From a virus (taxonomy: Duplodnaviria; Heunggongvirae; Uroviricota; Caudoviricetes), in IMG/VR virus record IMGVR_UViG_3300029450_000024: 4,733 nt of DNA; one strand, written 5' to 3'. The notes below the pieces were generated by a model. That model worked only from the letters and a program-made list of their open reading frames with translations. It did no database searches and was not told the origin of the DNA. Position 1 is the first letter of the stretch. Each line of letters begins with the position of its first letter. Made by a program: the position numbers and the translations under genes. Of this stretch, positions 1 to 4,733 are shown piece after piece.

Positions 1-69
1 CGGTGGAGCTGCATGACAAAGTCATCGGGCATTATCTGAACATAAAACACTATCAATAAGTTGGAGTCA

Positions 70-1057: not shown

Positions 1058-1073
1058 GTACCCAACCGAAACA
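1036..1073. promoter_or_regulatory. OL-like operator sites overlapping the PL-like promoter
   Basis: ATGTAC-N7-ATACAT at 1036..1054 (one mismatch to the GTACAT half-site) lies in the promoter spacer and -10. A weaker ATGTAC-N7-AAACAA follows at 1055..1073. Confidence 0.45.
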
Positions 1074-1264
1074 ACGAACAGGCAGGACGCCCACGAAGTA
1101 GCCGCCTAGGGCATATGAAGTCCAGGATGATTCGTTGAGTCATGTTGTGCCACCAGGCAATCATGTTAAAGCAGGTGTATGAAATGAAAGTCCAGATTTT
1201 AAACAATAACTGTGAAGTCGTTTGGGCGTAAAACATGACCGCGCGTAGACCAAGGGAGGAAAAA

Positions 1265-1441
1265 GTGGGAATAGTTAGAAATCAAGCAGATATATTGAAA
1301 ATCAGCTCTGAATTACTTGGAGTTTTGAAAAGTGAGCTCACCGCACATGGCATCGAGCCCACTGACGAAAACTTAAGTTGGGTTTTGTCGATTATTCAAC
1401 AATCACTCAAGCCCAGCCTCAGCAAACTTTTTATCGAGTAG
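1265..1441 (+). CDS. Hypothetical small protein (58 aa), first ORF downstream of the PL-like promoter
   Basis: GTG start at 1265, 5 nt after a strong AGGGAGG Shine-Dalgarno (1253..1259); stop TAG at 1439..1441. No recognisable domain and no arginine-rich N-like motif. The provided ORF's ATG at 1235 has no RBS. Confidence 0.4.
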   Translation: MGIVRNQADILKISSELLGVLKSELTAHGIEPTDENLSWVLSIIQQSLKPSLSKLFIE

Positions 1442-1594
1442 TGCTTCGAACTTATCGTAAAGCTTGCTTATGTCGTCTATCGGGTTTTCTGACGTACTGT
1501 AATTTTTATCTGATGTCATGGCAGCAGTCTGATATGCAGTGTGAGTCTTAACCGATAGTTGGAATAAATAAAGAATTTTTTCTTCTTTGGTCAT
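1403..1594 (-). CDS. Hypothetical small acidic protein (63 aa), convergent with and overlapping the 3' end of the 1265..1441 ORF
   Basis: Minus-strand ATG (rc of 1592..1594) preceded by AAGGAAA about 7 nt upstream; the provided ORF's further-upstream start has no RBS. Product MTKEEKILYLFQLSVKTHTAYQTAAMTSDKNYSTSENPIDDISKLYDKFEALLDKKFAEAGLE has no transmembrane segment. Confidence 0.4.
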   Translation of the reverse strand: MTKEEKILYLFQLSVKTHTAYQTAAMTSDKNYSTSENPIDDISKLYDKFEALLDKKFAEAGLE

Positions 1595-1810
1595 AACTAT
1601 TTCCTTCTTGGCTATATGAAAACACCAAGATACCACCGAGCCTGAAGTGGTGAAAAGACAGGCACATAACAGCTAAGTATTTTCAACCAAAGAGAATCCT
1701 TAGCGTTGTGGTGAATGCGGCTCAGCGCACGCGGGTTAAGGTTGAGGCTGACAGTCGACCTTCTGTGGATACCCACCCGTCTGGTGTGCAACCTTCGCCA
1801 GGCACCGGGA

Positions 1811-1831
1811 GGCACCCGGCACCCGGCACCA
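1811..1831. repeat. Tandem heptamer repeat GGCACC(C/A) x3, with a further GGCACC copy at 1801..1806
   Basis: Direct reading: GGCACCC (1811..1817), GGCACCC (1818..1824), GGCACCA (1825..1831), inside a GC-rich non-coding island. Confidence 0.6.
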
Positions 1832-1855
1832 CAACTTTATGCTGTGTGTAGTCCT

Positions 1856-1902
1856 GGCGGTACCAGTTTGTACCCTTGCTTCCGGCTGGTACCGTCCTTT
1901 TT
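1856..1902 (+). terminator. Terminator-like hairpin (tL1-like) upstream of the yfdP homolog
   Basis: Stem CGGTACCAG (1858..1866) pairs with CTGGTACCG (1886..1894), extendable by G1857-U1895 and G1856-C1896; 19-nt loop; then C + TTTTT (1898..1902). Plus-strand only. The long loop makes its efficiency uncertain. Confidence 0.45.
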
Positions 1903-4614: not shown

Positions 4615-4733
4615 TGGAGCCATACAGCCTGAACCGCCCCGGGTTTCCTGGAGAGTGTTTTATCTGTGAACTCAGGCTGCCAGATCATCGTTTCCGATGG
4701 AAGCATAATAAGCTTTTTCTGCTTCTGCCGGAG
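4614..4733 (+). CDS. Partial CDS (N-terminal 40 codons, continues beyond the window), hypothetical protein with a CxxC motif
   Basis: ATG at 4614 overlaps the yfdT stop (TAATG); GAGGTG Shine-Dalgarno at 4603..4608. Open to the window end: MEPYSLNRPGFPGECFICELRLPDHRFRWKHNKLFLLLPE... Confidence 0.5.
   Translation, partial: MEPYSLNRPGFPGECFICELRLPDHRFRWKHNKLFLLLPE

Follow-up and report, generated by a model that had tools for sequence, protein, structure and literature searches.

The stretch of DNA studied here (4,733 nucleotides [nt], hereafter "the window"; IMG/VR virus record IMGVR_UViG_3300029450_000024) contains a PL-like early promoter and, between that promoter and the gene yfdP, a long leader. 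In this report, we found that this leader carries two conserved structured RNAs, termed block A and block B. Block A lies at the start of the transcript and, judging by its covariation, is a real functional RNA; it defines a new family of structured RNAs whose regulatory position is fixed. Block B belongs, as a new and divergent member, to the known STnc100/PasD family of small RNAs (sRNAs). The phages to which the window is related have no N-type antiterminator, so that such N-less phages (of the SfV, ST64B and LLS types) must carry early-left transcription through terminators and Rho by some other means, if they do so at all. We tentatively propose, giving it somewhat less than an even chance, that block A protects the early-left transcript by RNA alone, and that block B and the terminator that follows it form an attenuator and sRNA module.

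Block A comprises three helices. P1 pairs positions 1074-1078 with 1131-1135, P2 pairs 1081-1083 with 1089-1091 as an invariant hairpin with an AGGAC loop, and P3 pairs 1105-1109 with 1122-1126, with one A·C mismatch (1108/1123) in the window copy. P1 and P3 surround the invariant core GGCAGGACGCCCACGAAGUAGCCGCC, at the 5' terminus of the RNA transcribed from behind the repressor gene, and an invariant 26-mer, GGCAGGACGCCCACGAAGTAGCCGCC, spans 1081-1106. Two GGA motifs are present, one in the AGGAC loop of P2 and one in the GGAUGA after P3; we take them to resemble CsrA sites. All of the block A sequences that we compared were picked by their exact core. Invariance of the core within these sets is therefore by construction, but its exact recurrence across distant genera is not.

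The helices themselves are supported by covariation. Seventy distinct copies of block A align without gaps, and 98.4% of the cells in this alignment are paired. Shuffling of the columns gives 77.4%, and none of 500 shuffles reached the observed value; pairing falls to 22-46% when the partners are slid. Double changes occur at seven of the 13 pairs, and two of the helices covary strongly. P1, for example, is found as ACGAA/UUCGU, GCGAA/UUCGC, GCAAA/UUUGC, CCACC/GGUGG and UCAUC/GAUGA, and in mEp237 an otherwise invariant pair of P3 has undergone a compensatory swap from C-G to U-A. RNAalifold independently predicts the same helices. In an independent set of bacterial genomes (about 45 species), 97.1% of cells are paired and nine pairs show double changes, in an alignment that was fitted to our covariance model of block A (R2). 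This model gives the window copy a score of 87.6 bits (E 2e-29) and also recovers the element in the genome set. The preliminary description of this DNA had proposed structure prediction and covariation analysis for 1058-1264; a covarying element is indeed present there, at 1072-1137, and the remainder (1140-1264) gives no structural signal (z -0.02).

The distribution of block A is very broad. Its exact 26-mer is found in more than 120 IMG/VR contigs among the matches listed, once per contig in each, and in representative genomes of 50 enterobacterial species, whose genera include Escherichia, Shigella, Enterobacter, Kluyvera, Phytobacter, Serratia, Yersinia, Erwinia, Pantoea, Xenorhabdus and Photorhabdus. 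Among complete E. coli genomes, 1,457 of 5,426 (about 27%) carry the element. Nonetheless, it is annotated neither in 45 phage records nor in any of those 1,457 carrier genomes, and no Rfam family matched it, even when 111 nt were searched with lax filters. A full-text literature search for the core sequences, which did not reach all work on put-like RNAs, returned only quantitative-PCR primers for STnc100. Two candidate kinships of block A were rejected. A hammerhead-type core (AUGA/CGAAG) misfits in the order of its elements, and no Rfam ribozyme family matches; further, the leader upstream of putL in HK639-type phages (CGAAGUUAGCC...GAUUCGG) is not a degenerate block A, as model R2 finds nothing there.

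BLAST comparison of the leader with related loci placed the block just after the start site, kept behind unrelated promoters and ahead of unrelated genes. Homologs of the S24 repressor make up 67 of the 93 distinct open reading frames (ORFs) that end within 300 nt upstream of block A on the same strand; several others encode helix-turn-helix proteins or are morons. A strong sigma-70 promoter (at least 9 of 12 consensus positions) is found in 81 of 134 distinct upstream regions, versus 11 of 134 in the reverse-complement control. These promoters comprise 30 different hexamer combinations, and their -10 hexamers end 13-16 nt before P1, which puts the first nucleotide of block A at roughly +6 to +10 of PL transcripts. 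In the window, it begins 16 nt past the -10 hexamer. What follows is variable: yfdPQR, kil/recE (in mEp237, SPN3UB and ZF40), or morons and small ORFs of unknown function. BoxA is a known antitermination module, and in 17 of the 134 leaders a canonical copy (GCTCTTTAA(CAA)) lies some 20-30 nt after block A. Only the repressor is universal to block A loci. Each locus holds a single copy of the element, with no second copy in the right operon. We found no conserved expression platform after block A, which argues against a classical riboswitch.

In the window itself, the promoter that precedes block A agrees with 11 of the 12 sigma-70 consensus positions and is overlapped, at 1037-1053, by a 17-bp palindrome (TGTACC-N5-RNTACA). 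Two further copies (232-248 and 282-298) lie between the cro-like gene and the cI-like gene, and a partial one is found at 1057-1073; in all, seven strand-matches are observed in the window where 0.08 would be expected by chance. With these palindromes both within the promoter and between the cro and repressor genes, this is a genuine PL/OL arrangement. The preliminary description had called this promoter PL-like, and its location after a Peptidase_S24 repressor gene and a terminator bears that out. The repressor gene and the early-left operon share one direction of transcription, and past the leader the plus strand continues through yfdP, yfdQ and yfdR, onward to xis/int. Given this gene order (repressor, terminator, promoter, leader, yfdP...xis/int), the plus strand corresponds to the leftward early operon of lambda.

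The second conserved RNA, block B, matches the Rfam family STnc100 (RF02076) over 1683-1904 with 30.0 bits (E 8.4e-4). This score is below the family's gathering score of 47, as are those of the SfV, ST64B, mEp460 and phiES15 copies. Block B carries the GGUGAAU motif and the exact 21-nt core of the family, CACCGGGAGGCACCCGGCACC, a 21-mer that is present in more than 120 viral contigs. Among 103 distinct copies, P4, the hairpin that adjoins the core on its 5' side, occurs with 34 arm types that stay complementary (a mean of 6.63 of 7 pairs, versus 5.52 with permuted partners), and P1 has a mean of 7.65 of 9 pairs, versus 6.91. The window copy has nine of nine pairs in P1 and seven of seven in P4, and its folded structure keeps P1, P4 and P5; in the LLS copy, P5 is fully compensated (GGUGG-AGGCA-CCACC). 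The window-type subfamily includes the copies of SfV, ST64B, phiES15, mEp460 and LLS, all of which score below the gathering score and are situated in the early-left leader, most of them directly before a terminator. Within the most conserved part of the block B core, the window has a 7-nt tandem duplication (CACCCGG, 1820-1826) that is shared by contig L207 and is not found in SfV or other copies. The Prokaryotic Genome Annotation Pipeline (PGAP) has a "frameshifted hypothetical protein" at 1708-2025, probably on account of this duplication; that protein is in all likelihood an artifact of annotating structured RNA.

Block B is followed by the strongest terminator candidate in the window (1856-1902), which is included in the RF02076 alignment. 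The earlier assertion that a terminator-like hairpin stands before yfdP is thus well founded, and in this respect the window resembles lambda, with a terminator separating PL from the distal early genes. The U-tract of this terminator is also the start of a long and very stable hairpin, which ends 45 nt before yfdP. It is kept in ST64B (with compensatory changes in the stem), mEp460, LLS, cdtI and Stx2c phages, and it has the look of a barrier element or of a site for RNase III-type processing. Upstream of block B, a smaller hairpin (1640-1663) is kept in SfV-type contigs, phiES15 and LLS; because its stem is invariant, covariation is uninformative there. In LLS, the GCCUG/CAGGC hairpin directly follows PL.

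Other members of the STnc100 family are located differently. The canonical elements are found in late regions: in 933W and VT1-Sakai they follow stxB, and in Evi and Klebsiella phages they are flanked by Q and the holin gene. We considered whether canonical STnc100 might be a PR' leader; this may fit contigs in which a promoter lies directly before it, but misfits 933W, VT1-Sakai and Evi, where stx or a moron precedes the element. STnc100-family elements also occur as tandem arrays of four to six near tRNA genes in late regions (contigs L016, 2265-3380, and L066, 4349-5513 and 8357-8555); the arrayed copies have one orientation, each with a different variable domain. STnc100 and PasD have been described as Hfq-associated, trans-acting sRNAs of unclear role.

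Could the leader instead work through a protein of the N type? SfII, SfV and SfIV have been described as having no N, cII or cIII (PMC3851460), and the lack of N in SfV-type phages is thus already known from print. For the window, the preliminary description had stated that there was no recognizable N-type antiterminator, that the 58-residue ORF after PL was well supported as an ORF with no arginine-rich motif, and that there was no convincing boxA/boxB pair; it had suggested profile searches of the 58- and 63-residue products. Our results agree on all of these points. The plus-strand ORF (1265-1441) opens with GTG behind a GGGAGG Shine-Dalgarno sequence, and would have 68 residues if begun at the ATG at 1235. 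Neither its product nor that of the 63-residue ORF on the minus strand has a match in Pfam, and in PHROGs they match only families of unknown function (phrog_15476 and phrog_2605, respectively). The two ORFs converge, with a 39-nt overlap (1403-1441), and PGAP annotates only the minus-strand one. We found no basic protein with an N-terminal arginine-rich motif just downstream of PL. A boxA search of the window for CGCTCTTA with at most one mismatch gave zero matches, and the best match to GCTCTTTAACAA has three mismatches, which is at the level of chance; further, there is no boxA (CGCUCUUA or GCUCUUUAACAA) beside a boxB hairpin in the leader.

We therefore consider it very improbable that either small product is a cryptic N-type antiterminator. 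The plus-strand ORF does hold the position of the first gene after PL, and its 68-residue form begins with MTARRPREEK, which includes three arginines. The protein is not basic overall, however, and has no nut partner, and the 63-residue ORF is on the opposite strand. The 68-residue form is carried by SfII alone among 50,697 phage records. Relatives such as SfV, SfIV, ST64B and others share the leader RNAs, yet have an unrelated ORF (orf33 in SfV) or none in its slot. The ORF is, then, a rare moron and not N-like. In ten other contexts, the first ORFs after block A are likewise unrelated and of unknown function, and a screen for arginine-rich motifs in ORFs downstream of block A returned only out-of-frame ORFs and nothing plausible. 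The first ORF in contig L227 (MNAAQRRRAYHK...) appeared to have such a motif; it was discarded as an N-like candidate, having no PHROG match and being unique. Finally, a scan of the SfV regulators against Pfam and PHROGs identified CII(CP76)-like, Ash, PerC-like, LexA DNA-binding-domain, KilA-N and Q proteins, but no N and no RNA-binding or N-like family.

The preliminary description had further offered, without choosing among them, RNA-based (put-like) antitermination, terminator read-through and a non-canonical factor. The first suggestion has two parts, which fared differently. The put sites of HK022 lie just downstream of PL in the case of putL, and block A occupies just such a place: downstream of an early promoter in an N-less phage. 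We recovered putL and putR of HK022 and the annotated putL of HK639 as references, found 82 distinct put-like sequences in viral contigs, so that put is itself a widespread family, and built a covariance model of put (R1) from 27 put sequences. Known put sites score 47-95 bits with this model; the window reaches no more than 7.4 bits (E 0.15), and does so on the opposite strand in an unrelated place. Nothing was found with it in SfV, ST64B, mEp460, phiES15 or LLS. The combination that characterizes put (a stem I with an AACGGCG loop, UAAACCAUGCGUCGG, and a stem II with GGCAAU) is absent from the leader. The idea that the leader holds a member of the HK022/HK639 put family is thus refuted; in its favor were the lack of N and two strings, CGAAC(A)GGC and GGAUGA, that block A and put have in common. 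By eye, these strings had suggested kinship, but they sit in hairpin loops in put and in a helix and a junction in block A, and the covariance model ruled the kinship out. Block A belongs neither to the put family nor to any Rfam family and is at most put-like in action. For the other part of the suggestion, that antitermination is RNA-based, the presence of two conserved RNA elements with covarying helices in the leader is circumstantial support.

The two kinds of element are nearly exclusive of one another: put is found in one of 134 block A contexts, and block A in one of 117 put contexts. In contig L234 (8764-8911), block A is followed, after 12 nt, by a full put (81 bits), the sole tandem among those 134 contexts. 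In contigs L304 and L322, both put loci, a canonical boxA (GAACCGCTCTTTAACAATCTGG) takes the place of stem II and is fused directly to stem I of put; leaders of the L021 type have this boxA string after block A. The combinations of block A, put, boxA and STnc100-like elements show that the early leaders of these phages are mosaics of exchangeable RNA modules. We had also regarded contig L305 as a window-type promoter with put replacing block A; there is no BLAST homology, and that claim has been withdrawn.

These observations can be assembled into a working model for the PL transcript of an N-less SfV/SfII-type prophage, in which cis-acting RNA modules would take the place of N and nut. About 10 nt after its start, the RNA would fold into block A, which may then act on the elongation complex or on a host factor and so shield the long untranslated leader and the operon. 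Such an activity could be processive antitermination or an anti-Rho effect, put-like in function and unrelated to put in sequence and fold. Block B and the terminator at 1856-1902 would serve as an attenuator module: polymerases that stop at the terminator would release a structured RNA of the STnc100 family, presumably stable, and those that pass it, perhaps promoted by block A, would go on into yfdP...xis/int. A need for read-through is evident from the terminator (-20.5 kcal/mol) and from the roughly 800 nt of mostly untranslated plus-strand RNA between PL and yfdP. Block A is the best candidate for the protecting RNA because of its position, its autonomy, its extreme constraint and its near-exclusive distribution relative to put. 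In a more specific version of the proposal, block A would represent a class of antiterminator or anti-Rho RNAs that is new and acts in cis; as an independently evolved functional analog of put, it would target RNA polymerase or Nus factors from within the initial 75 nt of the PL transcript. We advance this version with greater reserve and consider it rather doubtful.

Several facts weigh against protection by block A, and some of them favor a leader with no processive antitermination at all. In the latter case, the leader terminators would be leaky attenuators, or yfdP...xis/int would use other promoters (e.g., CII-activated ones); block A would stabilize the 5' end, bind a host RNA-binding protein or sense a signal, and block B would be an STnc100/PasD sRNA gene ended by its own terminator. 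LLS, a viable phage, and mEp460 have no N, put or block A and keep two terminators, or block B and a terminator, before yfdP. In both, the order of block B, terminator, hairpin and yfdP is retained, so block A is not required for that architecture. Although at least one strong sense-strand terminator lies within 3 kb in 70 of 111 block A loci, the enrichment that might have been taken as a sign of antitermination is absent (0.80 sense versus 0.85 antisense terminators per locus). Canonical STnc100, arrayed in late regions, is treated in the literature as a trans-acting sRNA. Moreover, block A has the GGA motifs that resemble CsrA sites, SfV-type phages encode a CII(CP76)-like activator, the tandem of block A and put in L234 implies that the two elements are not simply redundant, and a shared lineage of the immunity region, marked by a CII(CP76)/YmfL-like gene at most block A loci and at hardly any put loci, means that part of the co-occurrence pattern may reflect ancestry rather than function. 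Against leaky attenuation stand the strength of the terminator (a 13-bp stem and U5), the lack of a conserved expression platform such as a sensing riboswitch would have, and the 26-nt core, which does not vary between genera as far apart as Xenorhabdus, Yersinia, Erwinia and Escherichia and keeps its distance from promoters that are themselves unrelated; a stabilizing hairpin would not need as much. On balance, we judge this explanation unlikely, albeit one with a substantial claim.

Alternatively, block A could be a nut-like site for a trans-acting protein other than N, encoded by the host or elsewhere in the intact phage, for example in the right operon that IS1 has deleted here. An invariant junction between covarying helices is typical of protein-binding RNAs, and N-like proteins can be encoded far from PL, as is Gp17 of mEp021 in the right operon. 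Block A loci are also enriched for a right-operon gene set (a CII(CP76)/YmfL-like gene is present at 52 of 80 block A loci, versus two of 59 put loci), and the boxA sequences that follow some copies point to the involvement of Nus factors. Yet a partner of this kind is difficult to reconcile with a single copy of block A per locus and none in the right operon, with the repressor as the only universal gene, and with SfV regulators that include no RNA-binding or N-like family. We thus view a trans-acting factor as improbable, and we retain protection by block A itself as our tentative proposal.

The window is an exact match to positions 3719153-3723885 of the chromosome of E. coli strain 81, and it is a remnant of an SfV/SfII-like lambdoid prophage adjoining tRNA-Thr. 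The features of the window are collected in the table below. The right operon and the late genes are missing from the remnant owing to a deletion by IS1. Given that loss, the mismatch in P3 of block A and the 7-nt duplication in block B, the leader module is vestigial in strain 81.

Table. Features of the 4,733-nt window, in order of position
Feature	Position	Strand	Description
IS1	1-59		truncates the left side; replaces everything past the cro-like gene
cro-like gene	70-231	minus	
cI/LexA-type (Peptidase_S24) repressor gene	316-990	plus	Pfam PF00717, E 1.5e-26; phrog_4; PGAP "ymfK LexA family protein"
Intrinsic terminator of the repressor transcript	1002-1021	plus	8-bp stem, GCTTCG-type loop, T-run
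PL-like sigma-70 promoter	1030-1057	plus	TTGACA-16-CATAAT
Leader	1058-2040 (region)	plus	about 980 nt, largely non-coding; between promoter and yfdP
Block A	1072-1137	plus	conserved three-helix leader RNA, 66 nt; starts at about +10 of the PL transcript
Small ORF	1265-1441	plus	58 residues, GTG start, GGGAGG Shine-Dalgarno; 68 residues from ATG at 1235
63-residue ORF	1403-1594	minus	PGAP-annotated; phrog_2605, unknown function
Hairpin	1640-1663	plus	GCCUG-N14-CAGGC; A-rich loop of 13-14 nt
Block B	about 1705-1835	plus	multi-helix RNA; closed by P1 (1705-1713/1827-1835); P4 1779-1785/1797-1803; P5 1805-1809/1815-1819
Intrinsic terminator	1856-1902	plus	13-bp stem (1856-1868/1884-1896), then C and UUUUU; -20.5 kcal/mol, z -3.5
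Long hairpin	1900-1994	plus	very stable; about 23-bp stem, -49.1 kcal/mol, z -7.5
yfdP	2040-2402	plus	PGAP annotation; phrog_204; heads the yfdP-yfdQ-yfdR early-left cluster
IS3-family element	about 4672-4733		interrupts the left operon after yfdT; integrase gene and tRNA-Thr just beyond

A few further conserved elements were encountered in related phages. In mEp237 (contig L410, 2640-2700), a miniature block-B-like element (GGUGGUGAAU...GGCACCACC) is found about 60 nt past the subfamily-specific tail of block A, and it contains a boxB-like hairpin, GAGUGAAAAAGCUC; mEp237 belongs to a collection that has been described as Nus-dependent. ST64B (contig L005, at about 2735-2885) has a third conserved leader segment that starts with ACAGGUGUCUUCGGGAGGGG and can pair with CCCCGCCCGAAGAUACC some 130 nt downstream. 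This segment, which may be another structured domain, has no Rfam match at the gathering score; it is also present in contigs L131, L134, L154, L188, L200, L220, L222 and L227 and is absent from the window. In the right operons of SfV (contig L236, 7604-7792), mEp460 (contig L004, 323-511) and ST64B (contig L005, 407-595), isrK and the C4 antisense RNA adjoin one another, both with Rfam scores above gathering; the pair points to a P1/P7-type c4-ant immunity module beside the cI/cro switch.

The importance of block A lies in its offering a concrete and very widespread candidate for the means by which N-less phages express their early-left genes: a 66-nt RNA with strong covariation, in the slot of nutL and putL, that is absent from Rfam. 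LLS has been proposed to use put (2025; PMC12315714). We found no put and no block A in the LLS leader (contig L409, 3090-3670), where yfdP is preceded by a pair of terminators and by a block B of divergent sequence. If block A does modify elongation, it would represent a second family of RNA-only antiterminators in Enterobacteria. Were it an antiterminator or anti-Rho element, a large lineage of N-less lambdoid prophages would be relying on it; about 27% of the complete E. coli genomes have it, as do 50 or more species of enterobacteria. Even with no effect on elongation, block A would stand as a new structured RNA family.

Comparison with known systems helps to define what is shared and what is distinctive in this leader. 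Block B has in common with STnc100 and PasD the GGUGAAU motif, CACCGGGAGGCACCCGGCACC, the helices P1, P4 and P5, and an intrinsic terminator at its 3' end. It differs from canonical STnc100 in its P2 and its larger middle domain, and also in its place, in the early-left leader before yfdP, whereas the canonical element lies between Q or stxB and the lysis genes. The boxA-only systems that depend on Nus factors (rrn leaders and CRISPR arrays) likewise concern the protection of long untranslated transcripts from Rho. The block A leaders that carry GCTCTTTAA(CAA) resemble them; the window has no boxA.

With nutL of lambda and P22, block A shares its slot, just downstream of PL/OL and cI and before the terminators and the genes of recombination and excision; some of its relatives also share a canonical boxA. 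Unlike lambda and P22, the window has no N-family protein, arginine-rich motif, boxA or boxB, and block A greatly exceeds a boxB hairpin in both size and constraint. The put sites of HK022 and HK639 are cis-acting antiterminator RNAs that bind RNA polymerase. Block A has no homology to them in sequence or structure, being a three-helix junction closed by P1 where put consists of two stem-loops, and it occurs once per phage, in contrast to the putL and putR of HK022. Like put, however, it is found in N-less lambdoid phages as a self-contained structured RNA of about 65-75 nt with variable genes downstream, and, like putL, it stands at the very start of the PL transcript, with terminators to follow.

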